DNA of 64,000 nucleotides from an uncultured Gammaproteobacteria bacterium (GCA_964641355.1 CAZXND010000001.1:151858-215857); one strand, 5' to 3'. Counted from the stretch's first letter, positions 35,730-64,000 are shown. Numbers and translations are program-made. The notes: a model not told the origin generated them from the letters alone.

Positions 35730-36038
35730 ATGGAAAACGAAGGTGCAAAAGCTACCGGTAGTTCTGTGTCGCTTAGTATTCATGATGAAGTAGTAAATTC
35801 AGGTGTTAATCTTATCCATCCAGATCGGGAATTAATCTCTTCTATAAATGGGACTCCAATGGAGACCAGAGGAGAAATAATCGAACATCCAACCCAACCC
35901 TCTAATATCATCGACTTCACCAATGCCAAAGAGGCCATGAACACTCAAGAAGGAGAAACGAAGCGATCAACAAATAGATGGAAGCGATTATGGTTTTTTA
36001 GAGAAAAAGAACAAAAGGAGAAAAAAGATGCAGCTTGA
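35730..36038 (+). CDS. Hypothetical small soluble protein, translationally coupled to the following ATPase
   Basis: 102 aa with no motifs; it overlaps the downstream gene by 11 nt. Confidence 0.35.
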   Translation: MENEGAKATGSSVSLSIHDEVVNSGVNLIHPDRELISSINGTPMETRGEIIEHPTQPSNIIDFTNAKEAMNTQEGETKRSTNRWKRLWFFREKEQKEKKDAA

Positions 36039-38457
36039 AATTTTCTCAATCGACACTATCGTAACAATTCTTTTTTCTTTGGTTCTTTCTATCGTTTTGG
36101 TATCAGCTTTAATCGCTTCTCTTGTTGGAATTTTCTATGCATGGGGTCTTTGGAGAAAATCTGAATTACGACACAAAAAATCTTTAGACTCGTCTCTTCT
36201 TGAAATAGCACTTCCACGCGATAACGAAATAAAAATAGATGCAGCAGAACAACTTTTTTCAAGCTTTGCAGCAATGAAAAGCGTTAAAGGAATTCTTGCA
36301 TTTTCAAAAGTTCCCGACAGTATTTCTTTTGAAATCGTTGCACGCCCACAAGATATTAGATTTTATGTAGGAGTTCCAAAAAATCTTCGTGACATGGTTG
36401 AAAAACAAATTCATGGATCATATCCCGACGCACAGATAAAAGAAGTTGAAGACTATAATCTTTTTTCAGATAGTGGCGAGGTCGCCTACGCAAGCTTGGG
36501 CACAAAAGCCTCCTCTTACATTCCTATAAAAACGTTCAAAGACATACCTATTGATCCGCTTTCACAAATAACGAGTGTCATGGGAAAAATGCAGGAAGGT
36601 GAAGCCGCTGCGATTCAAATAATGATCACTCCCGGAGGAGATAAGTGGAAGAAATCAGGACGAACATACATCTCAGGTGTTAAAAAAAGAGAAGCAAATC
36701 CTGAAACAGCAAAATATTCAGTCGATCAAAGAGAGCTTGAGTCAATTGAACAAAAATTACCAAAACCTGGATTTTCCACATATATAAGACTAGTAGTTGT
36801 ATCCTCTACAAAAGAGTCTGCCGAAGCACATCTTTCAAACCTGGTCAGCTCCTTCACTCAATTTTCTTCTTACAACTCATTTGTAAAAAAGAAAATAACG
36901 TTTTTTAAGGACTCATTTATGGTTGACTTTATTTATCGATACTTACCACTCAGGGATAAAGGATCAATTCTAAACTCAGAAGAATTAGCAACCATATTCC
37001 ATTTCCCAAATAAAAGCATAGATAATCCACATATTAATTGGCTATCTGCACGAGTTGCACCAGCACCTGCAACAATTCCAACTTCAGGACTTTATCTTGG
37101 AAAGAGCATTTTTAGAGGAGTTGAAAAACCAATTTATGTTGGAGAGGATGACAGGAGACGTCATATGTATATTATTGGAAAAACCGGTACAGGAAAATCA
37201 GAACTTCTTAAAAGCATGATCTTACAGGATATAAAGGCTGGTAAAGGGGTCTGTTTCATAGATCCACATGATACAATTGAACAAATTCTCCCCCTTATTC
37301 CACCCGAGCGAGCAGAAGATGTAATTCTATTTGATCCCTCAGATACAGATAGACCAATGGGTTTAAATATGCTTGAAGCAAATACTGAAGAACAAAAACA
37401 TTTTATGGTTTCATCGATTATTGGTCTTATGTATAAGCTTTATGACCCACACCAAACAGGAATTATTGGTCCAAGATTTGAACATGCAGTCCGAAACGCA
37501 ATGCTTACAGTAATGAGCGAAGAAGGAAACACTTTCGTTGAAGTTGTTAGAGCCCTAACCGACTCCGCTTTTGTACAAGAACTTTTACCCAAAGTCGATG
37601 ACCCGATCATAAGAAGATATTGGACAGATCAAATTGCTCAAACTTCTGATTTTCACAAGTCTGAAGTACTAGACTATATAGTTTCTAAATTCGGACGATT
37701 TGTTACCAACAAAATGATGAGAAATATAATAGGACAAAGCAAAAGCGCTTTTAACTTTCGTGAAATAATGGACTCAAGAAAAATTCTTCTCATTTCTCTT
37801 GCAAAAGGAAAAATTGGTGAGGAAAATTCTAGCTTTTTAGGACTTATTCTCGTCCCAAGAATTTTAATTGCCGCTATGTCCCGACAAGACATTCCCATGG
37901 AAAGGCGACAAGACTTCTATCTTTACGTTGATGAGTTTCAGAACTTTGCTACTCCGGACTTTGCCCAAATATTATCTGAGGCAAGAAAATATAGACTGAA
38001 TTTGATTGTTGCCAATCAATTTATCGGACAGATGGAGGAAGAGGTTAAAAACGCTGTTTTTGGAAATGCAGGAACAATCATGTCTTTTAGAGTCGGTGTA
38101 ACAGATGCAAACTACCTTCAACATGAATTCCAACCAACATTTTCCGAAGCGGATCTAATAAATGTTGAACGATTCCACGCTTATATGAAAACAATTGTAA
38201 GTGGAGAACCAGTACCTCCGTTTTCAATTGACTTAACTAGAAATATCGTTGAAGAGAAAAAACTTGAAAACCCAAGAGTTGCAGAACTTGTTAAAGAACT
38301 TTCAAGACTTAAATATGGAAAACCTAAAGAACAAATAGAGAATGAGATAGCAAAAAGATCTAGACTTTTTGAAGTCGAAGAAGATTATTCAAAAGACTTA
38401 CCTGAATTGGGACGCGGACCAGAGGGTGGATTTGGTGGAACAGGTGGTAGTATCTAA
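36028..38457 (+). CDS. Membrane-anchored FtsK/HerA-superfamily ATPase, VirD4/TraD/TraG-type coupling-protein-like
   Basis: 809 aa. N-terminal TM, Walker A HMYIIGKTGTGKSE (TrwB-like GxTGTGKS), Walker B LYVDEFQNF, and a downstream RKYRLNLIVANQFIGQM block resembling the conserved T4CP ...ILQ..QL motif. Gly-rich C-terminal tail. Confidence 0.5.
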   Translation: MQLEIFSIDTIVTILFSLVLSIVLVSALIASLVGIFYAWGLWRKSELRHKKSLDSSLLEIALPRDNEIKIDAAEQLFSSFAAMKSVKGILAFSKVPDSISFEIVARPQDIRFYVGVPKNLRDMVEKQIHGSYPDAQIKEVEDYNLFSDSGEVAYASLGTKASSYIPIKTFKDIPIDPLSQITSVMGKMQEGEAAAIQIMITPGGDKWKKSGRTYISGVKKREANPETAKYSVDQRELESIEQKLPKPGFSTYIRLVVVSSTKESAEAHLSNLVSSFTQFSSYNSFVKKKITFFKDSFMVDFIYRYLPLRDKGSILNSEELATIFHFPNKSIDNPHINWLSARVAPAPATIPTSGLYLGKSIFRGVEKPIYVGEDDRRRHMYIIGKTGTGKSELLKSMILQDIKAGKGVCFIDPHDTIEQILPLIPPERAEDVILFDPSDTDRPMGLNMLEANTEEQKHFMVSSIIGLMYKLYDPHQTGIIGPRFEHAVRNAMLTVMSEEGNTFVEVVRALTDSAFVQELLPKVDDPIIRRYWTDQIAQTSDFHKSEVLDYIVSKFGRFVTNKMMRNIIGQSKSAFNFREIMDSRKILLISLAKGKIGEENSSFLGLILVPRILIAAMSRQDIPMERRQDFYLYVDEFQNFATPDFAQILSEARKYRLNLIVANQFIGQMEEEVKNAVFGNAGTIMSFRVGVTDANYLQHEFQPTFSEADLINVERFHAYMKTIVSGEPVPPFSIDLTRNIVEEKKLENPRVAELVKELSRLKYGKPKEQIENEIAKRSRLFEVEEDYSKDLPELGRGPEGGFGGTGGSI

Positions 38458-38571: not shown

Positions 38572-38643
38572 GCGCCTGTAGCTCAGTGGCAGAGCGCTAC
38601 TCTTATAAAGTAGATGTCCTTGGTTCGAATCCAAGCAGGCGCA
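38572..38643 (+). tRNA. tRNA with anticodon UAU (tRNA-Ile, AUA-decoding) - unusual anticodon
   Basis: Cloverleaf: acceptor GCGCCTG/CAGGCGC, D-arm GCTC-AGTGGCA-GAGC, anticodon stem CTACT/AGTAG with loop CTTATAA, T-arm CTTGG-TTCGAAT-CCAAG, discriminator A. 72 nt. CCA is not encoded. Confidence 0.75.
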
Positions 38644-38693
38644 CAACCCAAAAAATTGTCCGTCGAATCCAAGCAGATTATATAGAAACTGCC

Positions 38694-49423: not shown

Positions 49424-49427
49424 TTTG

Positions 49428-49447
49428 CGAGCTCCGCTAGGAGCGAG
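49428..49447 (-). promoter_or_regulatory. Hairpin sequestering the nrdJ Shine-Dalgarno (GCUCC-uagc-GGAGC)
   Basis: In the mRNA sense, ...CUCGCUCCuagcGGAGCUCGCAAAAUG: GGAG lies 9 nt upstream of the AUG and forms the 3' strand of a 5-bp GC-rich stem. Confidence 0.25.
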
Positions 49448-49563
49448 TAAAATACCTGAAGTCTCTACTAAGGACGAAGTCCGCAGTAAGAGTTACAGGT
49501 ATAATATTTTATTAAACAATCTTTCTTTCAACTTCATTTCATTTATAAGCACAACTTTTAACT

Positions 49564-50010
49564 TTACTTTATCAATTTTTTCAGTTCTTTTTCAAAATCT
49601 TCTAAATCTACAAATCTCTTAAAAACGCTTGCAAATCTTATATAGGCGACTTTATCAATTTTTTTAAGCTTTGCAGCGACCATCTGTCCGATTTTTTTAC
49701 TGTCTATCTCGACTGTCTCTCCACCCCTAAGTTCCAATTCTATTTCTCCAACAATTCTATCTATATCGCTAAAAGACACATTAGTCTTTTCACATCCCTT
49801 AATAATTCCGCTTTTGAGCTTTTCGCGGTCGAATTGCTCTCGTCTACCATCTTGTTTTTTGACAATAAGAGTTACGTTTTCGATTCTTTCGTAGGTCGTG
49901 AACCTTTTCCCGCAAGAGGTACAAAGTCTTCTTCTTCTTATTACGTCGTTTTCACCAAGTCTTGTTTCAACGACTTCAGTTTCTGTATTTCTACAATAAG
50001 GACAATGCAT
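49564..50010 (-). CDS. nrdR: Transcriptional repressor NrdR
   Basis: MHCPYCRNTETEVVETR...RRRLCTSCGKRFTTYE zinc ribbon plus an ATP-cone; 148 aa. Located immediately upstream of nrdJ. Confidence 0.85.
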   Translation of the reverse strand: MHCPYCRNTETEVVETRLGENDVIRRRRLCTSCGKRFTTYERIENVTLIVKKQDGRREQFDREKLKSGIIKGCEKTNVSFSDIDRIVGEIELELRGGETVEIDSKKIGQMVAAKLKKIDKVAYIRFASVFKRFVDLEDFEKELKKLIK

Positions 50011-50938: not shown

Positions 50939-52558
50939 ATGAACCTTCTATCCAAGCTTTCTTTATCTCGTATAACTACATATTATATAGTAGCTCTTCT
51001 TTTCTTTGTATTTTTCTCTCTTCTTCCATCTCAAGCTCTTGCACAATCCCCACTCAACATAAATACACAAGAGGGTGTAGAGAATAACATCCACACATAC
51101 TCACAAATTGCAATGATTGAAGTTTTAAGAAGTGCATCATGCTTCTTAACAGGCAAAGACCCTCTTGCGGTTAAAGCACAATGTATAGGAGTTAATCCCA
51201 TCTCAGGCAAATATGGGTACATTAATCAAGAAAACAATGGAATGATCGGAGTTATGGGTAATTTAATGTCTATGACATTCAACATTCCAATCAGCACCGG
51301 CCAATATTCATCTTATCTTGCAAATGATTTTGGTATAGCAAAAAAGACTTATGCTCAGGGACCTGGATTTCCTGGTCTTGCACCTGTTCTTAACCTTTGG
51401 AAAACTTTTAGAAATATTTCATACTTACTGTTTGTACTCATATTTATCGCTCTTGGTCTTGGAATAATGTTTCGAGTCAAAGTTGATCCGCGTACAGTTA
51501 TGACCGTACAAAATCAAATTCCCAAAATTATTATCGCGTTGGTTCTCGTAAGTCTTTCGTATGCGATTGTTGGATTTCTGATAGATCTAATGTTTGGGTT
51601 CATTTATCTTGAGTTTAATATGATCGGATCATCAACCCCAGATATTCAAACCAATATTTTTTCTTTTGTTAATAATACTATTGACCTTGAAGGAGGAGGA
51701 ATTTTTGGAACAATGATGCTTTCCTCTCTATCAGTTGGGAAGATTATAGCTTCTTCCTTTAATAATCTTTTTGCAGAACTAGGAAGCTCTCTTCTGGGAA
51801 CTGCTACAAAAGCAATTGGAGTGCTTTTAATACCTGTGACCTTTGGTGCGTCAGGAATTCCAGCAGGTTGTGACATCGCAGGAAAAATAGGAATTGGACC
51901 AGTAAGTATAAGAGATATTCCATTTATTTCTTCTGGTTGTGATGCAGTTGATAATCTTCCTCAAATAATAATCGGGGCGATAACAACAATTCTGGCATTT
52001 TTGGTTATAGCGATTGCAGTACTCTGGGCATTATTTAGAACATGGTTTATGCTTATCAGAGCTTTTGTCTATATTCTTATAGATACTCTTTTTGCTCCTC
52101 TTTGGATATCTGTTGGAATTTTGCCAGGTGCATCAGGTCTTGGATTTGAAAAATGGATAAGGCATTTGATGGCAAACATTTCTGTTTTTCCTGTAGTCGT
52201 TGGAATGTACTTAATAGCCAATTCACTAATCCACTCATTTGGCGGCGCCAATAGTTTTACACCTCCTCTAGTTGGGAACCCAAGTCAATCAGATGCAATA
52301 GGAGCGCTTATTGCTCTTGGATTTATTCTTTCCACTCCACAAGCTATATCAACAACAAGAAACGCCTTTAAAGCACCCGACTTTAAGCTCGTCGCACTCA
52401 AAACAGCGCTTGGAGTTGGGGTTGGAGGACCAAGAAGAGTTGTAAGCGGAGGACTAGGATACGTATACAGTCCGAAGCACGATCCAAAATCAGGAACCGT
52501 TATTTATCCTGCTGGTCCTATTGGAAAAGGGTTGAGAGCGCTTGGGATTATTCGCTAG
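50939..52558 (+). CDS. Polytopic membrane protein with N-terminal secreted domain; candidate VirB6/TrbL-like channel subunit
   Basis: Signal peptide, extracytoplasmic domain of about 130 aa, then at least 6 TM helices. Assigned by architecture and genomic context (same locus as the PrgI-like and VirB4-like genes), not by motif. Confidence 0.3.
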   Translation: MNLLSKLSLSRITTYYIVALLFFVFFSLLPSQALAQSPLNINTQEGVENNIHTYSQIAMIEVLRSASCFLTGKDPLAVKAQCIGVNPISGKYGYINQENNGMIGVMGNLMSMTFNIPISTGQYSSYLANDFGIAKKTYAQGPGFPGLAPVLNLWKTFRNISYLLFVLIFIALGLGIMFRVKVDPRTVMTVQNQIPKIIIALVLVSLSYAIVGFLIDLMFGFIYLEFNMIGSSTPDIQTNIFSFVNNTIDLEGGGIFGTMMLSSLSVGKIIASSFNNLFAELGSSLLGTATKAIGVLLIPVTFGASGIPAGCDIAGKIGIGPVSIRDIPFISSGCDAVDNLPQIIIGAITTILAFLVIAIAVLWALFRTWFMLIRAFVYILIDTLFAPLWISVGILPGASGLGFEKWIRHLMANISVFPVVVGMYLIANSLIHSFGGANSFTPPLVGNPSQSDAIGALIALGFILSTPQAISTTRNAFKAPDFKLVALKTALGVGVGGPRRVVSGGLGYVYSPKHDPKSGTVIYPAGPIGKGLRALGIIR

Positions 52559-55500
52559 CTTGAAGTAAGGTTCTTAAGATCGAGTACCACTGTTGTTTCA
52601 ATCATCGCAATAATTATTAACGCAAGAATACCTCTTGCGGAATAGAGCTTAAGTCGTCCATTTTTATCCACTTCAAGAATTGATTCTAAATCCCTAAATT
52701 GCTTCTCAGCATTATGCGTTCTCTCTTCAATCAACTTTCTCTGCTCCTCATCAGATAGAAGTTTTTCTTCATCGCTTAATTCTCCGACGCTATTTGCAAG
52801 CTTAATTCTAATATGGTCTAACTTTTCTCGCAAATCATCTCTTGTTAGAGATGCAGCCTGAGGACCGTAAATTTCCTCGAGTCTTGAAGTTGCTCTTCTA
52901 AAAGGTTTGTCTATTCCAAAAACATCCCAGAAAAATCCTTTTTTCGCCACTTCAAAAAGAGTACCAACCGTGTGTCTAACTGATTTTGCCCTACCCCCTT
53001 GTCCCAGATATTGACTGGCTGATTCTGCAAATTCCATCGCAGATTTGACACGCTCATCAATACCTTCTGATTTAAGAAAAGCAGTAAGCGCTGAGCCGGC
53101 CTTCATTGCGTTTGATATATCATTCATGTTTCTAACCAAAGCATCTGCGCCCCTATCTTTAGACCAAATACTTGAAAGCATTTTCAAGCCAGACCCTTCT
53201 GGACCTTCTTCAAGATCTTTTATAGAAATGTCATCTACCCTAAGAGTTCTTGTATAGATGTCATCAAATTCTTTTCCCCATGAAAGTTTTTTAATTTTTT
53301 CCGAAGTAACGAAACCCTGCATAGAAGAAAACATTTTTTCAAGTTTTTCTGCCTCTTCTTCGCTTCTTAAAAATTTCACCAAAGCACTCCTTTGCATGGG
53401 AGTTAGATGTGCAAAGTCAATTTGCTCTGGTACTCCTTCATTAAATTTTCCATTTAAAGCATCTTCTCTCATCTTGCTTATTATTGCTCCATACTCTTGT
53501 TTGAAACCATCAAATTTATTCTGTGCCTTAAATGCTTTCACTTTCCTTTTTAGCGAGTCTAACTCTTCCCTTCCAAGGGAGAGCGCTTTGCTTGATAGCT
53601 TTTCTAAATTTTCATCATCAAAATAGGATTTAAAAAATTCGAATTCTTTTTTGTCTGTTCCGTCGTATTTTATTTCTACAAAGGGCGAGGACGGATCAAG
53701 AAGAAGCTCTTGAAAATCAGAATCACTAGGAGCTTTATCTCTAAAAAGTCTTATCACTTCTTCGGTTCTAAATTTTCTAATTTTTTTCCAAATGTCTTCT
53801 AGCTCACTGAGCTTTGATTCTTTGTCTTTTGGATTTCTTGTAGCTCCTTTCAACTGCATAAAAAGCCCAAAATTATTAGCCTCTTTTACTGTCTCTTTGA
53901 ATCTACTTACATCTGACATCCTACCACTCAACTCAAATTCCTTTAATCTTTCCTCGATAAGATCATATGCCTCGCCTTCGCTTATTATTCCGAGCTTAGT
54001 CGCCACTTTATATTCAAAAAACTCTCTGTGCCTCTCTCGAATACCAAGAATTCTCCAACCAGAAGAATAAAAATCAGCTACTGCAAATAGGTCCTTAAAA
54101 AGTTTAGAACCTGCTCTTTCAGCTTCTAAATCATTCTCGTATTTAATTCCCAACTCACTAGCTCTTTCATAAGCCATTCTAAGCTTCATCTCTCTTAGAA
54201 ACTCTCTATCCTCAGCATTAAGAATGTTAAATTTTCCAGTGAGGAATTCTTCATAGTTAAAGATATTGAAAGCAGCACCTGGATCAGAATAGATGGCTAG
54301 AAGGCCCGGTGCATGTTCACCACGAGAAGCAATAACTATTTCTCTTTGCGAATCAACCAAAATGTCATAGGCCGTTCTAATAGACCTCTCTACTTTTTTT
54401 CTAGCACGGTCTAAATCTAATAAATTCCCTTTCTCATCTTTAAACTCATAAACACCAGCTTCAACCATCTTCATTTGTTCTTCGATAAGATCTTCATTGA
54501 CTCTTGTAACAGTCTCAGAATATAAATGCTGCTCGAATCCTCCTTGTCTTAATCTCTCATCTTCAAGCTTGTCGGCTATTCTAAAATACATGGCTTGAGT
54601 AAAACCGTCTTCAAAACTAAGTGCCTTAAACATCCCATGAGATTGAAGTCTTGAGGCTGCACCTTGGATTTGCTCAATTGATCTTGATTCAACGTTAACC
54701 CGCATAAATAACGAGTTTATAAGAATATTGTATCGCTCAGAAAATTCGGTAAGAACTTTTGTTCCATCAGCTCTATTTCCAATAGTAATTTCAAGATATC
54801 TAGTCGCTTCTCCAAAAGCTCTTTGGAGAGTCTCAAAAACAGGAGACTCTAATTCATTTCCTCTTCTTGCTGTATCATAAAATAGATCAAACTTCTCACT
54901 TAACCATCCCTGAGGATCAATGTCCAACTGTTCCATATCCTCAGACTGAATTGTAAAAAAGTTTCTTCTTTCTCTATCCTGTGAATGACTCAAGCGTTTT
55001 TCTATTGCAGACTCTTGATCAGCTATGGACTTTAGAACCTGCGCCTTCTCAACTCCATTAACACCCTCCATTTCATCAACTCTTTTAAAAGCCGCCCTTA
55101 GTTCTTCCAACTGTCTCCCTACATTACCCTGAAAAATATCAAAATTACGATTAACCCTTCCTATTTCTGCAATAAGCGATAAGTCTTTTATACCCTTATT
55201 ACCAATCGCATCTGCCCCACCCTCAACAGGTTTAACACCCATCTCTCCTAAAATTCTAGCGACCTGTCTTTCCTCTGAGGATATTACCTGGCCCCTACCT
55301 TCTCTTTCTTCAAAATGTTTCTGCCAATCGTTTGTCATGCTACTTATTTGAGGATTAGTTAAAAGTTCGCTGCCTCGACCTTGATAGGGTTTGCTTCTAA
55401 TCTCAGCTGCCCCTTTTCTAACATCAAGATTTATTTTTCCATCAAAAGAAGCTGGACTTCCTTCTTGTTTCGGTTCCATTCTACCTTCCAGTGTATAAGG

Positions 55501-55563
55501 GTTCACTCTTTGTGTCAACTCAGATTGATTTAAAAAGATTATTCTTTCTTTCATAGATCGCAT
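52555..55563 (-). CDS. Giant (1002 aa) alpha-helical/coiled-coil protein with single C-terminal TM helix (tail-anchored)
   Basis: No enzymatic motifs found. It is charged and Glu/Lys/Arg-rich. The only hydrophobic segment is C-terminal (GILALIIIAMIETTVVL). Its 5' end overlaps the VirB6-like gene by 4 nt on the opposite strand. Confidence 0.4.
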   Translation of the reverse strand: MRSMKERIIFLNQSELTQRVNPYTLEGRMEPKQEGSPASFDGKINLDVRKGAAEIRSKPYQGRGSELLTNPQISSMTNDWQKHFEEREGRGQVISSEERQVARILGEMGVKPVEGGADAIGNKGIKDLSLIAEIGRVNRNFDIFQGNVGRQLEELRAAFKRVDEMEGVNGVEKAQVLKSIADQESAIEKRLSHSQDRERRNFFTIQSEDMEQLDIDPQGWLSEKFDLFYDTARRGNELESPVFETLQRAFGEATRYLEITIGNRADGTKVLTEFSERYNILINSLFMRVNVESRSIEQIQGAASRLQSHGMFKALSFEDGFTQAMYFRIADKLEDERLRQGGFEQHLYSETVTRVNEDLIEEQMKMVEAGVYEFKDEKGNLLDLDRARKKVERSIRTAYDILVDSQREIVIASRGEHAPGLLAIYSDPGAAFNIFNYEEFLTGKFNILNAEDREFLREMKLRMAYERASELGIKYENDLEAERAGSKLFKDLFAVADFYSSGWRILGIRERHREFFEYKVATKLGIISEGEAYDLIEERLKEFELSGRMSDVSRFKETVKEANNFGLFMQLKGATRNPKDKESKLSELEDIWKKIRKFRTEEVIRLFRDKAPSDSDFQELLLDPSSPFVEIKYDGTDKKEFEFFKSYFDDENLEKLSSKALSLGREELDSLKRKVKAFKAQNKFDGFKQEYGAIISKMREDALNGKFNEGVPEQIDFAHLTPMQRSALVKFLRSEEEAEKLEKMFSSMQGFVTSEKIKKLSWGKEFDDIYTRTLRVDDISIKDLEEGPEGSGLKMLSSIWSKDRGADALVRNMNDISNAMKAGSALTAFLKSEGIDERVKSAMEFAESASQYLGQGGRAKSVRHTVGTLFEVAKKGFFWDVFGIDKPFRRATSRLEEIYGPQAASLTRDDLREKLDHIRIKLANSVGELSDEEKLLSDEEQRKLIEERTHNAEKQFRDLESILEVDKNGRLKLYSARGILALIIIAMIETTVVLDLKNLTSS

Positions 55564-55654: not shown

Positions 55655-56980
55655 ATGAAACAAAACGAAGCCTCTCATTTTGAATCCCTCTATCCTGCCG
55701 AAACCCGAGAGAAAGAAATTGGCGAAATCATTGGGTTTGTAAAAAAGGGCTTATCTTCACAACTAATTGGTCTTCCAGGAAGTGGGAAAAGCAATGTTTT
55801 AAATCTTTTAACATACAACAGAAAAGTGCGAACTCTTCATTTAGGAAACGCGCAAAATAAATACCATTTCGTATACATGGATTTTTCCGAAATTAAAGGT
55901 CGAAATAATTTTGAAGTTATTAAATTTATTCTAATTTCACTCGCCTATTCACTTTCTGAAAGAAGAATGAATAAAGAATATGGAGAGATAAATAAATATT
56001 TAAAAGAAGCAATTTCATTTAATGATGAGCTCATTCTTTTCCAAGCGCTTAAAAAAAGCATTGATTTTCTAGCAAACGAATTAGACCTTACCGTAATCCT
56101 TCTACTGGACAGGTTTGATCAATATTTTTACGATGTATCAGATTCCTTTTTTCTTAATTTAAAAATTCTAAGAAATAGGGCGAAGTATAAATTTTCTACC
56201 GTTTTCTCACTTTCACGCTCAATACAAGAACTCCTAGAAGAAGACGTTTATTCTGAATTTTCTGAATTTTTTTCTCAAAACAAGGTCTTTCTTAGTCTTT
56301 TTGACAAAATAGGCATAGCATTTAGACTTTCATATCTTGATAAAACCACTAATAAAAAAACAAGTGAAATGACAAAAAAAGAACTTCTAAGAATAACATC
56401 CGGACATGGAAAATTGACTCGAGTAGGATACGAACTTTTACTTTCTGAAAAAGAAATATCCGACATTGAAAACTTTTTAGAACAAAAAGACATTATTAAA
56501 AAAGTCTGTTATGAAATTTGGGATACTCTTACCCCTGCCGAACAAAATATTTTAATAAAAATTTCAAAAAAAGAAGATATAAAAATCCCAAATTATTTTG
56601 AAGAAATAGAACTTATAAAAAACGGGGAAATATATATTCCAATTTTTGAAAAATTTCTAAGCAAAGTAAAATTCAAAAACGAATTAATAGTTTATGATGA
56701 AGGAAAAAATGAGATACTTAAAGGTCAAGATAATTTAACAGATGTTTTAACTCCGCTAGAATTTAGAGTCTTAAGATTTTTAATTATAAATAAAGATAGA
56801 ACTTGCGAAAAAGAGGAAATTATTAACTCTGTATGGAAAGACTCAAAAACACAAGAAGGAGTTAGCGACCAAGCCTTAGATCAAATCGCTTATAGACTTA
56901 GAAAAAAGATTGAGAATGACCCCAACAATCCAAATTACATTTTAACTATCAAGGGTCGTGGTTTTAAATTTAATCCTTAA
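55655..56980 (+). CDS. P-loop NTPase fused to C-terminal OmpR/PhoB-type winged-helix DNA-binding domain (putative locus regulator)
   Basis: N-terminal Walker A LIGLPGSGKSNVLNLL in an AAA/STAND-like domain of about 250 aa. The C-terminal 100 aa match the trans_reg_C pattern (LTPLEFRVLRFLIINKDRTCEKEEIINSVW...SDQALDQIAYRLRKKIE...ILTIKGRGFKF). Confidence 0.55.
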   Translation: MKQNEASHFESLYPAETREKEIGEIIGFVKKGLSSQLIGLPGSGKSNVLNLLTYNRKVRTLHLGNAQNKYHFVYMDFSEIKGRNNFEVIKFILISLAYSLSERRMNKEYGEINKYLKEAISFNDELILFQALKKSIDFLANELDLTVILLLDRFDQYFYDVSDSFFLNLKILRNRAKYKFSTVFSLSRSIQELLEEDVYSEFSEFFSQNKVFLSLFDKIGIAFRLSYLDKTTNKKTSEMTKKELLRITSGHGKLTRVGYELLLSEKEISDIENFLEQKDIIKKVCYEIWDTLTPAEQNILIKISKKEDIKIPNYFEEIELIKNGEIYIPIFEKFLSKVKFKNELIVYDEGKNEILKGQDNLTDVLTPLEFRVLRFLIINKDRTCEKEEIINSVWKDSKTQEGVSDQALDQIAYRLRKKIENDPNNPNYILTIKGRGFKFNP

Positions 56981-56982
56981 GC

Positions 56983-58353
56983 TTGTATTTTAAATTTAGA
57001 TTCGGTTATGATTTAAGAGTGAGAAAATTCCTTCTTCTAATAATAATTCTAATTACTTTTTTTTCTATATCAAAGATTTCCTTTGCACAAGAACAAAAAA
57101 CCCCATCTTCTACTCCTGCTGCTTCTGATCCAAACGGTTACGGAGCAATTATTACTAGCCCATCGAATCCGGACGACATAGTTGAAGGGCACAAGATTAT
57201 AACTGTAAAATTCACAATCCCATCATCAGAAATTGGAAATGAATTTTTACTTTGTCAGGAAGCAGATTGCGGTGAAACTCACGACAAATTAAATAATGGA
57301 ATCGCAGACTCAAAACCCACTACGGCAAGTTTTGATATTAAAGTATGTGGAGCAGAAGCTGGAGTTTTACAAACCAATAATTGCGAAAACAGTGGCTCTG
57401 ATCTTTACGGTGGAATGATGTACTATCTTACATTGGTAAAACATGAAAGAGAATCAACTGGGCAAGTAACAACCTCGGAATCATTCACTCCTGTTGCGAG
57501 TGTCAGTTTTTATGTTAAAAGAATCTATCCAAATGTTGATTTAACTTCTGAAAACGAAAACAAACCGCGTATTGGATCGAAGCCTATCTTACATTTCAGC
57601 CAAAACGAATTTCCAGTACCAGAAGATGCCCTTACTGATACTTATACGTATAAAGTTCAAGTTTTTAAAATTGGAGCAAGTGATGAAGAGTATGACTATC
57701 AAGAAGAAGTAGAACTAAATGAAAATAATAAGTCTGATGACCTCAAAATAACTACAAACGGGGAGACCGGAGGTGGCCTCCCGGAAGGAAATTACATTGT
57801 AAAAATTTTCCGTAAATCCTCCCCCTTCACTGATTCTGCAAATACAGTAGTCGGGGGAGATGGTTTTCTAATGTACACAATCGATTTTAGCGTCACGAAT
57901 AATGGGGGAAAGATAGGAGTAAAGAAGAAAGACCCAGAAGGGAAAGATAATAGACTTTTTGCTGCAGGAGATCAGCTCAGTCCGACCCCTCCTCCACTTC
58001 CCTGCTTGGAAGGGTGGAAAGACGATCAAAAAACTATAATATCTCAGGATCCTAAAGAAATAAAATATTGTACGAAAGTTGGTACAGCGCTGGGAAGTCT
58101 TGAGGTAATGCCTCTTGGATTAATATCAAATCTTCTAAGATGGTTCCTTGGTATTGCCGGATCCGCTTCGCTTATTATCTTTCTTTATGCAGGATATGTA
58201 TTAATGACATCAGCTGGAAACAAGGAAAAGGTTCAGGGGGCACGTGAAACAATAACCTCAGCCATTGTTGGACTGATATTTATCATTTTTTCTGTAGCAA
58301 TTCTTGAATTTATCGGCGTTGATATCTTGCAAATTCCAGGACTTGGAAAATAG
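56983..58353 (+). CDS. Secreted Cys-containing 330-aa domain fused via Pro-rich linker to a C-terminal VirB2/TrbC-like two-TM pilin module (candidate tip adhesin/minor pilin)
   Basis: Signal peptide, a soluble domain with 6 Cys, a SPTPPPLP linker, then ...LISNLLRWFLGIAGSASLIIFLYAGYVLMTSAGNKEKVQGARETITSAIVGLIFIIF..., which is homologous to the three downstream small proteins. Confidence 0.45.
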   Translation: MYFKFRFGYDLRVRKFLLLIIILITFFSISKISFAQEQKTPSSTPAASDPNGYGAIITSPSNPDDIVEGHKIITVKFTIPSSEIGNEFLLCQEADCGETHDKLNNGIADSKPTTASFDIKVCGAEAGVLQTNNCENSGSDLYGGMMYYLTLVKHERESTGQVTTSESFTPVASVSFYVKRIYPNVDLTSENENKPRIGSKPILHFSQNEFPVPEDALTDTYTYKVQVFKIGASDEEYDYQEEVELNENNKSDDLKITTNGETGGGLPEGNYIVKIFRKSSPFTDSANTVVGGDGFLMYTIDFSVTNNGGKIGVKKKDPEGKDNRLFAAGDQLSPTPPPLPCLEGWKDDQKTIISQDPKEIKYCTKVGTALGSLEVMPLGLISNLLRWFLGIAGSASLIIFLYAGYVLMTSAGNKEKVQGARETITSAIVGLIFIIFSVAILEFIGVDILQIPGLGK

Positions 58354-58356
58354 CCA

Positions 58357-58701
58357 ATGAAAGATTTATTAGCTCTGACAGTACAAAACCCAAGCGGAGT
58401 AATCGAAAAATTGAGTCCTCCTCCCGAAATAATCAGTGGGCCGGGCACAACAAATACAATAGTGAGATTTGGTCTTAATCTTCTTGTTGTTACTGGAATT
58501 ACCGCATCTCTTATCTATATGCTTCTTGCCGGAATTAAATGGATAACTTCTGGCGGAGACAAACAGAAGATCGAAGAGGCAAGGAAGGGAATTACATATT
58601 CAATAGTTGGAATTATTATTATTTCTTTGTCTTTTGTAATCATACATTTAATAGGAGAAATATTAGGCGTACAGCTTCTCTCAAGGTTTGGTGTTAAATA
58701 A
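58357..58701 (+). CDS. Two-TM pilin-like protein (VirB2/TrbC-like topology), paralog 1
   Basis: 114 aa: ...NTIVRFGLNLLVVTGITASLIYMLLAGIKWITSGGDKQKIEEARKGITYSIVGIIIISLSF... Hydrophobic helix, conserved charged loop, hydrophobic helix. Confidence 0.45.
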   Translation: MKDLLALTVQNPSGVIEKLSPPPEIISGPGTTNTIVRFGLNLLVVTGITASLIYMLLAGIKWITSGGDKQKIEEARKGITYSIVGIIIISLSFVIIHLIGEILGVQLLSRFGVK

Positions 58702-58713
58702 AAAGTTGCACTA

Positions 58714-58742
58714 TTGACAAACTTTTTAGAACATGCTCTAAT
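58714..58742 (+). promoter_or_regulatory. Sigma-70-like promoter (TTGACA-17-TCTAAT) upstream of the signal-peptide-bearing pilin paralog
   Basis: A perfect -35 hexamer with 17-bp spacing to an A/T-rich -10, about 10 nt upstream of the ATG at 58752. Confidence 0.3.
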
Positions 58743-58751
58743 AAATTAGAT

Positions 58752-59189
58752 ATGAAAAAATCACTTAACTTAAAAAAGGCAATAATTCCCTTATCGGCTT
58801 TTGCTTTACTTGCAGTTGCGACTCCAGCATTTGCTGCCACCCAACAACAAGTGATTGACTTAAGTCCTGTTAATGGAGTTGTTCCTAGTAGTGCTGTTCA
58901 AGTAAGTGACGTTATAAGATTTATTATCAATTTACTTGTAGTCATCGCTGTAATTGCTTCTCTTGTATACCTTATTTACGGAGGACTTCGATGGGTAATT
59001 TCAGGTGGGGACAAAGAGAAAGTTGAAGCAGCAAGAAAAACAGTAGTTGCTGCAATTATCGGCTTGGTCGTTGTTCTTCTCTCATGGGTTATAATCACAG
59101 TTGTGATGCAAATCGTAACTGGAAAGGCGCTTAATAATTTCACTCTTCCTACACTACAATCTCCAAACACACAAACTAAACCTCAATAA
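58752..59189 (+). CDS. Two-TM pilin-like protein with cleavable signal peptide (candidate major pilin), paralog 2
   Basis: 145 aa. Signal peptide MKKSLNLKKAIIPLSAFALLAVATPAFA|A, then ...SDVIRFIINLLVVIAVIASLVYLIYGGLRWVISGGDKEKVEAARKTVVAAIIGLVVVLLSW... About 60% identical to paralog 1 across the core. Confidence 0.5.
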   Translation: MKKSLNLKKAIIPLSAFALLAVATPAFAATQQQVIDLSPVNGVVPSSAVQVSDVIRFIINLLVVIAVIASLVYLIYGGLRWVISGGDKEKVEAARKTVVAAIIGLVVVLLSWVIITVVMQIVTGKALNNFTLPTLQSPNTQTKPQ

Positions 59190-59228
59190 CCTCCTTTTAC
59201 TTTCTCAAAATTTTTATATAATAAAATA

Positions 59229-59558
59229 ATGAATAGTCTCAATACTAGCAACTGGAACTCGTGCATCGACAGTGCTTATGGTGTTCCACAACTTACATGC
59301 CTTTGGGTAATTTTGAGTAATATCCTTAACGCCTTCCTTACTTTATCAGGACTTGTAGCATTATTCTTAATAATCTATTCTGGGATAAAATTTATAATGT
59401 CGCGCGGAGATAAAGAAAAAATCGAAGGAGCAAGAAAAACTTTTATTTTTGCTATTATCGGGCTCGTTTTTATTCTATTATCTTTTTATATTTTAGTATT
59501 TATAGGACAACTAACAGGAATTAAAATCGATAAGTTAATAACCCCGCCACAAAGATAA
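59229..59558 (+). CDS. Two-TM pilin-like protein, paralog 3
   Basis: 109 aa: ...LSNILNAFLTLSGLVALFLIIYSGIKFIMSRGDKEKIEGARKTFIFAIIGLVFILLSF..., the same conserved core. Confidence 0.45.
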   Translation: MNSLNTSNWNSCIDSAYGVPQLTCLWVILSNILNAFLTLSGLVALFLIIYSGIKFIMSRGDKEKIEGARKTFIFAIIGLVFILLSFYILVFIGQLTGIKIDKLITPPQR

Positions 59559-59560: not shown

Positions 59561-61339
59561 TTAAGAAGTAATTCCTCCTATAATTGCCGCTGCTTGTCCA
59601 ACTCCCCCAAGAGCTGCAAAAGCCAGGAGGAAGATTAGAGCTTTACCTTTTTTTGTACTTCCAAAGGCTTTTAATCTTTTTAGTAGCTCGACTTTTTCTT
59701 TTGTTGTTTCTTTTGAAACTCCCATTTCTTTATCAATCATTTCTCCTTTTTTAAGAAGCTCGTTAAACAGTTCTTCTCCGAATTCAGGATTGTTTACTAA
59801 TTTAGTAGCGTCTTCATTGCTTATTCCCACAATCATTCCCCGAGAAAGAATTTCAGTCTTAACACTTTCGCGAAGATTACTCGCAAATTCTGGATCATTA
59901 GCAATTCTCTCTTTGATTTCGACTGCTCTTACCTCTTTTCTAGCCTCAAACTGCATATCCGTCTCTCCTTCATTCTTAACCAAACTATCCTTCGCAAGTC
60001 TTACAATCATAGCGTCATTACCATTCTCTATTAAGTATTTTGTGTACTCTTGAACCTTTTTCCTATCAAACTCAACCTTAATTTGTTTTCCTACTACTTT
60101 TTTAACTTCTGTTGTTTGGATTTGTTTTAAAATGTCTTTTTTGTCGTTATCTTTTTCAGCAGCAATTTCTCTTGTGGTAATCTGATTAAGAGCTTCTATT
60201 CTCGCTTGTGCATCTTGAGCAAGTTGCATTTCTGCTTTAACCGTAATAATACCCTTTGCAGTCTCAATCATTTTCACATCTTGCGCTGCCTTTTCTTTCT
60301 CAGTAGTGTTAAAAGCATCTTCTGCTTTTGTCTCCTGCTCTTTTAGTGCTTCCAGTTCTTCACTTAATCTTTCTTCTTCCTCTTCAAGAGTTTTGATTTT
60401 TCCAGGTAGGCCCTCTTTTTCTGATTTTAACTGAAGATATCTTTGACGTTTCTCACGAGCTTGTCCGAAGGATAGATATTCCTTTTCTTCATTAGAAAGA
60501 CTGCTTGGATCAATTGCATTTTTTGCTTTTGCCGCAGCGATTGACGTCAATATCTGGTCAGGTCTCGCTTTTGCACCATACATTTCAAAAAAAGCAACTT
60601 CTATCGGCCTGTCATAAATTTCAAAATCCTTCACTCCTGAACTTTCAAGGTTAGAAAGCTCTCCTGCAATAGTAAGGTTTCCACTTGCATCGGCAAGTTG
60701 TCCATTAAATTCTTCCTGCCTACTTTTCGCCTGAGCCAAATCTTTAGAACTATTTTCTCTTTCCCCTTCTTTCCTTTCACGATCTTTCTTGGCCTTATCA
60801 AATTCTTTTCTAGTCATAACAAGCTTTGCCTCAATCTCACTCGGTCCAAAACCTTGCTCAAGAACTTTTTTTATCTCTTCCTGAAGATTCTTATTGCCCA
60901 AAACGAATTTTGCGACCTCTCTTGTCTCATCCTCACTCAATCCACCAAACACCTCTTCGTTAGCTTGAAACCTAGCGGTAACCTGATCTAGTATTTTATC
61001 TTGATTTGTTCTATCGATATTAGCAAACCCTTTTTCAGCAATTTCTTGGGCTAACTGTAAATTCTCTTTTGCCTCTTGGTATTCTTGTACGCGATCCCCC
61101 GGAGGACTTCCCAGTCTATCTTCGAATCTCTCTTGAGCGTTGAAATCTAAGTTATTTTCTTGTTGAGCAAATTTTTTTAGTATATCTTCTGCATTTTGAT
61201 TTTTCGCTAATTCTTCCCTAATTCTTTGTCCCATATCACGATTTGTCTGCTGCTCAGGAGTAAGATGTGCCCCTGGTGCTACCGGCTTTCTTTCAGTCAT
61301 TGATCTAACCGCAATTTCTGCTTTATTGATGTCCGCCAT
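59561..61339 (-). CDS. 592-aa highly charged coiled-coil protein with single C-terminal TM helix (tail-anchored)
   Basis: Glu/Lys-rich with no enzymatic motifs. The C-terminal segment ALIFLLAFAALGGVGQAAAIIGGITS is the only hydrophobic region. Confidence 0.4.
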   Translation of the reverse strand: MADINKAEIAVRSMTERKPVAPGAHLTPEQQTNRDMGQRIREELAKNQNAEDILKKFAQQENNLDFNAQERFEDRLGSPPGDRVQEYQEAKENLQLAQEIAEKGFANIDRTNQDKILDQVTARFQANEEVFGGLSEDETREVAKFVLGNKNLQEEIKKVLEQGFGPSEIEAKLVMTRKEFDKAKKDRERKEGERENSSKDLAQAKSRQEEFNGQLADASGNLTIAGELSNLESSGVKDFEIYDRPIEVAFFEMYGAKARPDQILTSIAAAKAKNAIDPSSLSNEEKEYLSFGQAREKRQRYLQLKSEKEGLPGKIKTLEEEEERLSEELEALKEQETKAEDAFNTTEKEKAAQDVKMIETAKGIITVKAEMQLAQDAQARIEALNQITTREIAAEKDNDKKDILKQIQTTEVKKVVGKQIKVEFDRKKVQEYTKYLIENGNDAMIVRLAKDSLVKNEGETDMQFEARKEVRAVEIKERIANDPEFASNLRESVKTEILSRGMIVGISNEDATKLVNNPEFGEELFNELLKKGEMIDKEMGVSKETTKEKVELLKRLKAFGSTKKGKALIFLLAFAALGGVGQAAAIIGGITS

Positions 61340-61679
61340 TGCTTATTTTTATCTCCTCTCTCACTATATTTAGCGCCTCATCTATTTTTCCTTCTTTTGC
61401 GAGTTCGCTTGCGGCCTCAGCCACTTCCTCATCTTTTTTTTCCTGAACCTCTCCACTCTCCACAACCAAAAGATAAGAAAAGACAGACCATTTTGATGAT
61501 AATACGCGAAGAAAATTGATAAGCTCCTCGTGTGTATTTACTTTTTCCATCTCCTTAACTATGAATGAAGAAAGAGAGGGGACTTCTTTTGATGGGATCA
61601 TATCCTGCTCAAGAGCATCTGCTATCAACTCCACTATTTTTTTTGCAACTTCCCTTTTATGCTCTGGCGTTAAATCCAT
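61323..61679 (-). CDS. Hypothetical small acidic soluble protein, translationally coupled to the 592-aa gene
   Basis: 118 aa; it overlaps the downstream gene start by 17 nt. Confidence 0.3.
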   Translation of the reverse strand: MDLTPEHKREVAKKIVELIADALEQDMIPSKEVPSLSSFIVKEMEKVNTHEELINFLRVLSSKWSVFSYLLVVESGEVQEKKDEEVAEAASELAKEGKIDEALNIVREEIKISNGGHQ

Positions 61680-61884
61680 ACTATTTTATTATTGGATAAT
61701 TAAATTTTAATGTCAAACAAACTCTGAAATTAAAATCCTATAAAGTTGAGACTCAAGTAATATTTCCAAAACGATTTATACCCATAGTTTTCACGATTTG
61801 TGCCTAGCTTGATATAGTTAATAGCCTTGCAATGAAAATTTTCACGTTATACGCTTAGTTTACGGCTATATACCAATAACTCTG

Positions 61885-63051
61885 GTGTATTTCTCGCCCA
61901 GAAAGGCTCGTAATATGGAAATGGAGAATCATCCGATTCCCCTTGATGTTACAGGATTTAAATTTAGACTGATAGGAAGCATGACTGTTAAGCAGTTTTT
62001 GTATCTTTTGGCTTCTGGAATACTTGTATCGCTTACACTTCTTCTTCCCTGGCCACTTTTAATAAGAGTTCCAATGATTACTTTTTTCTCTTTGGTTGGA
62101 TTTAGTCTGGCTTTTATTCCAATCGATGGAAGACCCATGGATAAAATGATTGCTAGCTTTGCAAAACACGTTCTGTTTACAGAAGACTTGTGGGTTTATC
62201 GAAAAAAAGGAGCAAATATTGCTTCTTATGAAATCTTCCAAGAACCCAAAGTTGAAACAAAACCCGCTCCACAAGAACCATCCCAACCAAGTATACGCAC
62301 TTTTGCTATTAAAAAACCTCACGTAAAACTCGAGCAAGAAGAACTCGATTTTTTGAAAAGAGTACGAGGGTTTTTCTCAGAATCAGCCGTTCAACAACAA
62401 CCAGTTATAAATTCTACAACTTCTTCTCCCCATCCAACGCAAACAGAAGGAGAAGAAGCCTTGAAAATCCGCACTGAGATTCAACAAATTAAAAATCGTG
62501 TGGAAGTTGAAGGTCCAACAGAAGAATTAAAAAAAAGACTTACAGAACTCGAAGCAAGACTTAGCAATATTCTCGCTCAAAATATTGCCCTTCAAAATAA
62601 AGTATTTGAATTTCAAAGACAAATTCCAGACAAGGCTTACCAGGTGGAAGGCAAACCTACTATAACACCTAACGCAAGACTAGTAGACAGCGCAAGTCAA
62701 GTTAAGGCTGGCTTTCCAATGCTTCCTGATATCCCAAACGTGATACTTGGAATAGTAAAAGATCCCAGAGGTAGGATTTTACCTGGAATTATAGTCGAAG
62801 TGGTAGATCAAAATAATATTCCAGTGCGTGCTTTTAAAACAAATAAATTAGGACAATTTGCTGCCGCAACACCTCTTCCAAATGGAAAATATAAAATAAT
62901 TTTTGAAGATCCTCAAAAAAACAACGAGTTTGAAACAATCGAGATAGACCTTAATGGACAAATTTTTCAACCGCTTGAGGTTATTTCAATTGATCAAAGA
63001 GAGAGACTTAGACAAGAGCTCTTTGGTAAGACAAATTCGTTACAAAACTAA
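61885..63051 (+). CDS. PrgI/VirB3-like T4SS membrane protein fused to coiled-coil and C-terminal beta-sandwich (CarboxypepD_reg-like) domain
   Basis: The N-terminal 110 aa (PLDVTGFKFRLIGSMTVKQFLYLLASGILVSLTLLLPWPLL...FSLAFIPIDGRPMDKMIASF) match the PrgI-family pattern (..tfrQllYLl.. hairpin of two TM helices). The VirB4-like gene follows immediately. The C-terminus has VILGIVKDPRGRILPGIIVEVVDQNNIPV...GKYKIIFEDP. The start may be at M11/M13. Confidence 0.5.
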   Translation: MYFSPRKARNMEMENHPIPLDVTGFKFRLIGSMTVKQFLYLLASGILVSLTLLLPWPLLIRVPMITFFSLVGFSLAFIPIDGRPMDKMIASFAKHVLFTEDLWVYRKKGANIASYEIFQEPKVETKPAPQEPSQPSIRTFAIKKPHVKLEQEELDFLKRVRGFFSESAVQQQPVINSTTSSPHPTQTEGEEALKIRTEIQQIKNRVEVEGPTEELKKRLTELEARLSNILAQNIALQNKVFEFQRQIPDKAYQVEGKPTITPNARLVDSASQVKAGFPMLPDIPNVILGIVKDPRGRILPGIIVEVVDQNNIPVRAFKTNKLGQFAAATPLPNGKYKIIFEDPQKNNEFETIEIDLNGQIFQPLEVISIDQRERLRQELFGKTNSLQN

Positions 63052-63052: not shown

Positions 63053-63685
63053 ATGTCAAAGAGGAAAATTTCATCAACAACACAGGACTTTACAGAACTA
63101 ATAGACATAATCGATGGAATCGCTTTTTTCAAAAATAGGAATTCAGCTCTTGTTGTTGAAGTTTCATCAGTTAATTTTTCACTGCTCTCCCCCGATGAGC
63201 AGAACTCAAGGATCTATGGCTACATGAGTCTTTTAAATTCTCTTTCTTTTCCAATCCAAGTCCTAGTAGTAAGTCAGAAAATAAATATGTCTTCCTATGT
63301 AAAAACATTAGATCAAAGAATCACAAGTTCACAAAACTCAAGAATTTCAAAACACTTAGTCGAATATAAAAACTTTATAAAAGAGCTCACAAAAACGGAA
63401 GGACTTCTTGACAAAACGATCTATGTAGTTATTCCACTCACCCCTCTTGAGCTTGGAATATCAAACGTTGCAAAAGAGATAAAAAAACAAGCCGAGTTTG
63501 TAGAAACAACTAGAAAAACACTTAATAGTCGGGCAGCAAGCGTTATTAACCAACTACAAAGACTAGGTCTTACAGCAAAAGTACTCAACTCAGACGATTT
63601 AGCAAGACTTTACCATAATATTTATAACCAAGAATCGATAAATATAGAGTATGAGTCACAGGATTTAAAGAATGTGATTTTATAA
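63053..63685 (+). pseudogene. VirB4/TraE-like T4SS ATPase, N-terminal 210-aa segment (ORF terminated by TAA; continues in another frame)
   Basis: STTQDFTELIDIIDGIAFFKNRNSALVVEVSSVNFSLLSPDEQNSRIYGYMSLLNSLSFPIQVLVVSQ follows the N-terminal-domain pattern of Gram-positive VirB4 homologues (..DG.i.....g.f...y.l..iNF.l...dEqe.i...y...LNs.....Q.....). The start at 63053 was chosen because its first codon abuts the stop of the PrgI-like gene. Confidence 0.5.
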
Positions 63686-63689: not shown

Positions 63690-64000
63690 ATGTTTGGAAA
63701 AAAGAAACAAGCAACTCCACCTCAACCCAAAATCTCTCCGTCTATGTCTGCTTTAAAAAGCGGATCGATATCACTTGTAGATTTAATCGCCCCCTCATCG
63801 GTTGAAGTAGATTTTAAATTCGTTAGGATCGGGGATAGTTTTTTTAGAACCTTCTTCGTTGCAGATTATCCAAGAGTCGTGTCTCCAGGCTGGCTTTCAA
63901 GCCTTATCGACTTTAAGGAATCAATGAATATCTCCATGTTTATTTACCCAGTTCAAAGCTCAGACGTTTTATCTAACCTCCGAAGAAAAATTGCCGAGAT
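63690..64000 (+). CDS. VirB4/TraE-like T4SS ATPase, continuation (+1 frame), truncated by window end
   Basis: MFGKKKQATPPQPKISPSMSALKSGSISLVDLIAPSSVEVDFKFVRIGDSFFRTFFVADYPRVVSPGWLSSLIDFKESMNISMFIYPV matches the conserved ..DLIAP.....f...G..y.Rt.fi..yP..l...wl block of Gram-positive VirB4 homologues, at the expected distance from the N-terminal segment. Confidence 0.5.
   Translation, partial: MFGKKKQATPPQPKISPSMSALKSGSISLVDLIAPSSVEVDFKFVRIGDSFFRTFFVADYPRVVSPGWLSSLIDFKESMNISMFIYPVQSSDVLSNLRRKIAE

Follow-up and report, generated by a model that had tools for sequence, protein, structure and literature searches.

A four-gene T4SS_pilin array beside PrgI, TrsD-like and VirB4 genes on a chromosome of probable Patescibacteria origin

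The stretch of DNA analysed here, 64,000 nucleotides long and hereafter called the window (GCA_964641355.1 CAZXND010000001.1:151858-215857, labelled as an uncultured Gammaproteobacteria bacterium), carries four consecutive open reading frames (ORFs) at positions 56983 to 59558, each encoding a module of two transmembrane (TM) helices joined by a charged loop. These ORFs are probably an array of VirB2-like pilin genes of the T4SS_pilin family (PF18895), part of a chromosomal type IV secretion system (T4SS) of the monoderm, MPF-FATA-like type, in a host belonging to Patescibacteria of the Microgenomates/Levybacteria kind. The locus is an ordinary, textbook case of the pilin arrays already catalogued in the ultrasmall Patescibacteria (candidate phyla radiation, CPR); it is already known in kind and represents no new kind of element.

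The four-gene array and its conserved loop

The four genes lie on the + strand exactly where an initial annotation, made from the sequence of the window, had placed them. Its description of them as paralogous two-TM modules is borne out, as alignment and hydropathy give the order helix, charged loop, helix in every copy.

56983..58353, + strand: pilin gene 1; 456 amino acids (aa), TTG start; signal peptide, two beta-sandwich ectodomains and a C-terminal T4SS_pilin hairpin
58357..58701, + strand: pilin gene 2; 114 aa, starting 3 nt after gene 1; no signal peptide; 36-residue net-neutral N-terminal tail
58752..59189, + strand: pilin gene 3; 145 aa; Sec-type signal peptide (MKKSLNLKKAIIPLSAFALLAVATPAFA, predicted cleavage before AT) and helical hairpin
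59229..59558, + strand: pilin gene 4; 109 aa; no signal peptide; 23-residue N-terminal tail

All four proteins score above the gathering cut-off of PF18895 (T4SS_pilin, 'Type IV secretion system pilin'; 26.6 bits, whole-protein score), with 30.9, 29.4, 39.0 and 37.7 bits for genes 1–4 respectively, and the matched segments include the loop. The same family is the precomputed annotation of two database proteins identical to proteins of the window (P0001 and P0046). It is also present in all 45 database homologues of gene 3, the few named members of which are all Patescibacteria (Levybacteria, Roizmanbacteria and 'Patescibacteria group'). When a profile of the module was run against the whole 64-kb window, exactly these four copies were matched (E 2e-19 to 3e-31); the likeness between them is far beyond chance, with identities of 32–44% across the module core. 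Hydropathy gives two hydrophobic stretches in every module. When the proteins of genes 2–4 are aligned with the last 112 residues of the gene 1 protein, 12 columns are invariant, concentrated between the two hydrophobic helices.

The inter-helix loops, which contain 3–6 K/R, read SAGNKEKVQGARE in gene 1, GIKWITSGGDKQKIEEARK in gene 2, GLRWVISGGDKEKVEAARK in gene 3 and GIKFIMSRGDKEKIEGARK in gene 4. The consensus proposed initially for all four, G(I/L)(K/R)(W/F)(I/V)xS(G/R)GDK(E/Q)K(I/V)E(E/G/A)ARK, describes copies 2–4 but not copy 1, which has the variant GYVLMTSAGNKEKVQGARE. The accompanying claim that this motif belongs to no described family does not hold: it is the core and most conserved segment of PF18895, and Patescibacteria arrays of this sort have been published (PMC10633639, PMC12102498, PMC12857230). 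In an alignment of 46 family sequences, the loop (G-G-x-x-W-I-x-S-G-G-D-K-x-K-V-E-A-A-R) has a mean top-residue frequency of 0.68, compared with 0.47 and 0.57 in the helices and 0.30–0.39 in the tails. A family profile search over 1.84 billion representatives (clusters of public data at 50% identity) matched 98,274 proteins with a threshold of E<=1e-3; tightening this to E<=1e-10 left 41,490. Given the family membership, the conservation of the loop and the number of matches, the motif is the hallmark of a curated and very large family.

Linkage to type IV secretion genes

The array is preceded by a regulator gene, and components of a T4SS follow it on the same strand up to the end of the window. 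Several of these genes were compared with their counterparts in L002, a related locus of 51% identity with identical gene order on a 427-kb contig, which continues into a complete VirB4 gene and a gene for an 808-aa protein.

55655..56980, + strand: regulator, 441 aa; C-terminal OmpR/PhoB-type winged helix (Trans_reg_C, 65.9 bits) and N-terminal P-loop/AAA-like region (weak AAA_22)
61885..63051, + strand: PrgI (VirB3-like; 28.4 bits, cut-off 27) with a coiled coil and a CarboxypepD_reg beta-sandwich
63053..63685, + strand: TrsD/TraC-like protein, related by homology to the N-terminal domain of VirB4; the NCBIfam models VirB4_plasma and TrsD match below threshold
63690..64000, + strand: N-terminus of a VirB4 ATPase gene, truncated where the window ends; matches the VirB4 of L002

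The CarboxypepD_reg match in the PrgI protein is weak, at 27 bits and below cut-off; the L002 orthologue has the same two domains. The L002 orthologue of the TrsD-like protein is 202 aa long and matches PF26593 (TraC-like). For the TrsD-like gene of the window, the ATG at 63053, which lies 2 nt after the PrgI stop and gives a protein of 210 aa, is a likelier start than 62954, which would overlap PrgI by 98 nt. The VirB4 of L002 contains AAA_10, DUF87 and P-loop_TraG domains. VirB4, PrgI/VirB3 and TrsD are therefore found together on a chromosome, the combination by which a Patescibacteria MPF-FATA-like T4SS is recognised.

Elsewhere the window contains housekeeping genes, including those for MetRS, GroEL, LepA, MurJ, UvrD, NrdR and ribonucleotide reductase, and the locus is therefore chromosomal and not an obvious mobile element. 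No relaxase, a gene that such loci typically lack, was found among the approximately 30 of the window's 62 ORFs of >=100 aa that were scanned against Pfam. A tblastn search with gene 3 gave no match in 72,556 plasmids or 50,697 phage records, and thus, at the sensitivity of BLAST, no evidence of a mobile-element origin.

Conservation of the array across related genomes

A genome scan with the profile of a 10-sequence alignment returned 34 loci which, where named, belong to Levybacteria, Woesebacteria, Daviesbacteria, Microgenomates and Parcubacteria. A number of them (L004–L007, L010, L011 and others) come from Third Party Annotation (TPA) records titled 'uncultured Gammaproteobacteria bacterium', evidently a generic or wrong label. 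The loci hold between 1 and 11 modules each, mostly in tandem. It had been reasoned at the outset that a pilin role would be in doubt if homologues elsewhere were never linked to VirB4/PrgI; the linkage is in fact present both here and in at least 16 distinct related loci, where PrgI-TrsD-VirB4 lies within 10 kb of the array.

The order of the genes is conserved as well as their company. Compared with eight related loci, each of genes 1, 3 and 4 is closest to the gene in the corresponding position (45–63% identity for gene 1, 42–69% for gene 3 and 41–55% for gene 4), with off-diagonal identities of 21–46%; gene 2 shows no such preference, being about as similar to gene 2 as to gene 3 of these loci. 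The architecture of the copies is likewise kept across loci, with an ectodomain fusion first, a form with a signal peptide third, and short forms lacking a signal peptide second and fourth. A long protein of 336–645 aa with a pilin module at its extreme C-terminus occurs in 22 of 35 related loci; the array usually opens with an ectodomain-pilin fusion.

Among the top matches to the family profile are three single polypeptides, P0087 (552 aa), P0091 (395 aa) and P0099 (1775 aa), that carry 4–17 T4SS_pilin modules in tandem. No internal stops interrupt them, and the linkers between modules have a natural look.

Gene 1, an ectodomain-pilin fusion

The hairpin of gene 1 occupies residues ~380-448 (nt ~58120-58326), and its PF18895 match spans residues 380-443. 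In the AlphaFold2 (AF2) model, a signal helix is followed by strands across residues 54-305 and by helices at 377-409 and 414-448. A cleavable signal peptide had initially been attributed to gene 3 only, but gene 1 appears to have one too, consisting of a basic n-region, the h-region FLLLIIILITFFSI and a predicted cleavage site between SFA and QE, and its orthologues are similar in this respect; signal peptides were called throughout by inspection and hydropathy. Eight cysteines are invariant or near-invariant in 24 homologues, which fits a predicted extracytoplasmic location.

In Foldseek searches the sandwich domains match tandem FN3/cytokine-receptor domains and transglutaminase beta-barrel domains (E ~1e-5 to 1e-6). 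A jackhmmer search with the ectodomain over the 34 genome loci found no relatives at E<=1e-5, yet homologues at ~30% identity were found in a large-database search, so the ectodomain evolves quickly yet is not unique. At the extreme C-terminus, after helix 2, proteins of the gene 1 group carry the motif I-P-G-(F/L)-G (58320-58353 in the window). The gene 3 group has a conserved motif of its own C-terminal of helix 2, (F/L)T(L/I)PTL (59100-59189 in the window). Both motifs could be sites of processing, cyclisation or subunit contact.

Gene 3 and its promoter-like element

The AF2 model of gene 3 consists of helices at residues 51-83 and 88-123, with a predicted local distance difference test (pLDDT) score of >90. 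Two promoter-like elements lie upstream of genes 3 and 4:

58714..58742, + strand: promoter-like TTGACA-17 nt-TCTAAT, ending 9 nt before the gene 3 ATG at 58752
59217..59222, + strand: perfect TATAAT hexamer, 6 nt before the gene 4 ATG; no good -35 element

The element credited to gene 3 in the initial annotation thus exists, but it is not clearly the only promoter-like sequence in the array, given the perfect TATAAT of gene 4. At that upstream position of gene 4, related loci have a semi-conserved CTCTTG box and a -10-like hexamer. A generic promoter scan did not list the gene 3 element, the -10 of which is without the consensus A at position 2. It is nevertheless retained as real because TTGACA is conserved across loci: it precedes the start codon of the gene 3 orthologue by ~30-40 nt in 11 of 11 loci with the same synteny (the window, L002, L004, L005, L007–L010, L013, L016 and L032), in spacers that have otherwise diverged, where chance would give 0.018 occurrences per 50 nt.

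At these loci, 7-10 nt separate the end of the -10-like hexamer from the ATG, with no evident Shine-Dalgarno sequence. The spacing of the -10 suggests that an internal promoter may produce a leaderless or near-leaderless gene 3 mRNA. Together with the signal peptide, the conserved promoter-like box makes it plausible that gene 3 encodes the major subunit.

Relation to TrbC/VirB2 and other small membrane proteins

The reading of the modules as VirB2/TrbC-like pilins is upheld by the membership of all four proteins in PF18895 and by a bridging protein, P0039, that leads to the TrbC/VirB2 family (PF04956). P0039 is 38% identical to gene 3 and passes both thresholds, with 60.6 bits against PF18895 and 31.6 bits against TrbC. 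TrbC is also matched at E<=0.01 by 9 of 46 homologues. Through P0039 the family is likely to be a remote homologue of TrbC/VirB2, with the proteins of the window falling below membership; Agrobacterium VirB2, for its part, matches TrbC alone and not PF18895.

The resemblance to TrbC/VirB2 pilins (PF04956; Agrobacterium VirB2, RP4 TrbC) extends to small size, a two-helix hairpin, a short basic loop between the helices, a predicted N-terminal signal peptide (here in gene 3) and association with VirB3 and VirB4. Unlike the diderm systems of which those pilins are part, the window belongs to a monoderm host with no VirB7/9/10 outer-membrane complex, and it contains far more paralogues.

A second relative is Mbov_0395 (NF045849), from integrative and conjugative elements (ICEs) of Mycoplasma, likewise a small two-TM protein, encoded beside VirB4 in an MPF-FATA-type system of monoderms. 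The four proteins of the window all align to 55-73 of its 80 positions (E 1e-7 to 2e-4), with scores for genes 1–4 of 26.3, 21.1, 28.0 and 31.5 bits, below the 40-bit cut-off. They are thus outside that equivalog, and the ICE context of the Mycoplasma system, with its relaxase and mobile element, is not seen here among the ORFs scanned. Sub-threshold matches were also obtained to the membrane proteins Mbov_0396/MMCAP2_0566.

The VirB5/tip pilins of diderm T4SSs offer a functional analogy only. Like them, gene 1 would present an exposed, binding-type domain, once per array and at a fixed position. There is no relation in sequence or fold, and the exposed domain of gene 1 is covalently fused to a pilin module, whereas VirB5 is a separate protein.

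Published Patescibacteria arrays

Pilin arrays of this kind were described in accounts dating from 2023 and 2025. A search of 3,035 Patescibacteria genomes with PF18895 and PF04956 found VirB2-like pilins in 1,948 assemblies, 1,135 of which have them close to virB4 (PMC12102498). The same study catalogued 441 arrays of 2-11 pilin genes in 383 assemblies; they were most abundant in Microgenomatia and Saccharimonadia, and identity within arrays averaged 25% and reached 54% at most (PMC12102498). The four genes differ in no way of kind from these: they are chromosomal, lie beside PrgI/VirB3, TrsD and VirB4, and probably come from the array-rich Microgenomatia. Tandem, diverged PF18895 paralogues are also shared with the arrays of Southlakia epibionticum ML1 (T4SS cluster SEML1_0006-0019) and Nanosynbacter lyticus TM7x. 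In S. epibionticum, a cultured Saccharibacterium, a predicted pilin-subunit array is essential for epibiotic growth, and the Saccharibacteria arrays were called pilins by structure-based annotation (PMC10633639). The T4SS and pilus have been proposed as a conduit to the host, the formation of the pilus being itself a proposal (PMC12857230).

The wider interest of such loci is that the T4SS is essential for epibiotic growth in one tested species and that the pilin array distinguishes the Patescibacteria T4SS from other monoderm systems. The window provides a clean, compact example, with four positional orthologues, one of which has a conserved promoter and signal peptide and another of which is fused to an ectodomain. 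Positional orthology, the conserved promoter box of gene 3, the leading ectodomain-pilin fusion and the dedicated upstream regulator are unmentioned in the cited literature on Patescibacteria T4SSs; together with the concatemers, these features are modestly useful leads.

A proposed mechanism and its alternatives

Membership of all four proteins in the family, the hairpin fold, the linkage to PrgI/VirB3, TrsD-like and VirB4 genes and the conserved four-gene layout are established here. In the mechanism proposed, each module would sit in the cytoplasmic membrane with both ends outside (N-out/C-out) and its basic loop in the cytoplasm, because in gene 1 an exported ectodomain joins helix 1 and because the K/R of the loop should obey the positive-inside rule. 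N-out/C-out is the topology of VirB2/TraA propilins, and once VirB2-type pili have assembled, their lumen is lined by the loop between the helices. The loop would be the sole part of the module reachable by cytoplasmic VirB4, TrsD or VirB3 and could act as a handle by which subunits are extracted from the membrane; afterwards it would form the inner lining of a filament or conduit of the VirB2 type. Such a role, as handle or as lumen lining, would explain why the loop is near-invariant and the outward-facing tails diverge.

Within this scheme gene 3, with its signal peptide and its own conserved promoter, would supply the subunit present in abundance. The contribution of gene 1 would be a covalent FN3/Ig-like ectodomain, which makes it a candidate host-binding or tip/base subunit, and specialised minor subunits would come from genes 2 and 4. 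Once assembled, the structure would mediate contact with a host cell, as proposed for cultured Saccharibacteria. The cassette may encode a fixed heteromeric filament or conduit in a monoderm, with gene 3 as its promoter-boosted major subunit, gene 1 as the 'missing adhesin' of Patescibacteria T4SSs, determining host contact, and the loop as the extraction handle for VirB4/TrsD. This full version is put forward tentatively, as possible rather than probable. Were it true, the polyproteins of 4-17 modules would be pre-assembled filament segments or rings, a principle unlike any known T4SS pilus.

Several observations weigh against a pilin filament. Only one protein of the window, gene 3, matches PF04956 TrbC at all, and does so at 17.3 bits (E 0.0057), below the cut-off of 27.9. 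An hhalign comparison of the 46-sequence family profile with Agrobacterium fabrum VirB2 returned a probability of 0.1%, although a template of one sequence gives this comparison little power. Searching every chain sequence in the PDB with the profile found no solved pilin, just weak matches to the TM region of Smoothened. Fold searches also found no solved pilin and returned unrelated helical hairpins, the hairpin being too simple a shape to discriminate. Genes 2 and 4 appear to lack a signal peptide, unlike canonical VirB2/TrbC propilins, and concatemers of 4-17 modules are awkward for a filament of separate subunits. No filament has been reported for any Patescibacteria T4SS in the cited literature, where the pilus is a proposal (PMC12857230), and monoderm T4SSs are normally without pili (PMC12102498, PMC12857230). 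As to roles within the array, the division into major and minor subunits draws solely on the promoter-like motif and the signal peptide.

Some of these points would suit a different structure built by the same family and the same T4SS, without an extracellular pilus. The hairpins would form a hetero-oligomeric ring or lining in the membrane around a VirB3/VirB6/VirB4 translocon, comparable to the small membrane proteins found in other conjugation systems of monoderms, and the ectodomain of gene 1 would be an anchored adhesin. The usual absence of pili from monoderm T4SSs favours such a ring, as do the concatemers, in which an even number of TM helices per module is better suited to a ring than to a filament of free subunits, the failure of sequence and fold searches to find a solved pilin, and the sub-threshold matches to the Mbov_0395 pilin-like and Mbov_0396/MMCAP2_0566 proteins. 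Nevertheless, a bridge to TrbC/VirB2 pilins exists; diverged paralogues, variable outward tails and an ectodomain fusion resemble sets of major and minor pilins; and the Saccharibacteria arrays were annotated as pilins by specialists (PMC10633639). A membrane ring is therefore considered unlikely. It is more improbable still that the four copies are interchangeable, alternative major pilins without fixed and distinct roles, serving antigenic or host-range variation of the kind suggested for the VirB2 paralogues of Bartonella and Anaplasma and raised for Patescibacteria (PMC12102498). The outward-facing tails of the paralogues are highly diverged and array size ranges from 3 to 11 between related genomes, as such variation would have it, but every position has its own orthologue across genomes, so the duplications are old and the copies have been kept distinct rather than turning over. 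The conserved differences in architecture between the copies, and the co-expression suggested by gaps of 2-3 nt, also argue against interchangeable use.

The remaining alternative, that the modules merely resemble pilins and belong to some unrelated family of two-TM proteins (holins or stress-response membrane proteins, for example), was named in the initial annotation as the outcome that would overturn its reading, and is effectively refuted. The hairpin is a generic shape, for which fold searches return unrelated proteins. All four proteins nevertheless exceed the cut-off of a curated pilin family, a PHROG scan gave no holin and no meaningful match, phage and plasmid records yielded nothing, and the linkage to PrgI, TrsD-like and VirB4 genes is constant, in a chromosomal window with housekeeping genes. 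A VirB2-like pilin array thus remains the preferred account of the four genes.

Neighbouring genes

The regulator ends 2 nt before gene 1. The gaps of 2-3 nt between regulator and gene 1 and between gene 1 and gene 2 suggest that these three genes may be co-expressed. The regulator has no receiver domain. A homologue directly precedes the array in 15 distinct related loci, and the protein may be a dedicated transcription factor of the pilin genes. Other genes of the surrounding region are as follows:

36028..38457, + strand: VirD4/TraG-type coupling-protein-like ATPase, 809 aa; DUF87, TraG-D_C, TrwB_AAD_bind and T4SS-DNA_transf just above cut-offs
52555-55563, - strand: 1002-aa coiled-coil-like protein; single C-terminal hydrophobic anchor; no family match
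59561..61339, - strand: coiled-coil-rich protein, 592 aa; C-terminal hydrophobic anchor
61323..61679, - strand: acidic protein, 118 aa; homologues in L002–L005

The 1002-aa and 592-aa proteins, both charged and coiled-coil-like, flank the regulator-pilin block on the opposite strand. Homologues of the former occur at the same position in seven related loci. The latter has no Pfam or PHROG match; its place in L002 is taken by two reverse-strand genes, of 693 and 114 aa, and close relatives keep reverse-strand genes there. The 118-aa acidic protein has no significant match to a Pfam family. Upstream of it, at 61688-61716 on the - strand, TTGACA-17-AATAAT (11/12) is the best sigma-70-type match of the region; it lies in the divergent spacer and points towards the 118-aa and 592-aa genes.

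The coupling-protein-like ATPase, ~19 kb upstream of the array, is a possible distal component of the same T4SS. Between it and the pilin locus are NrdR and the large subunit of ribonucleotide reductase, with a TSCPD domain (46949-50010, - strand). The ATPase gene is adjoined by a gene for a SpoIID-domain protein (38568-40403), and an M23 peptidase is encoded nearby (33940-35286, - strand); these two proteins could have a VirB1-like role in opening the cell wall.

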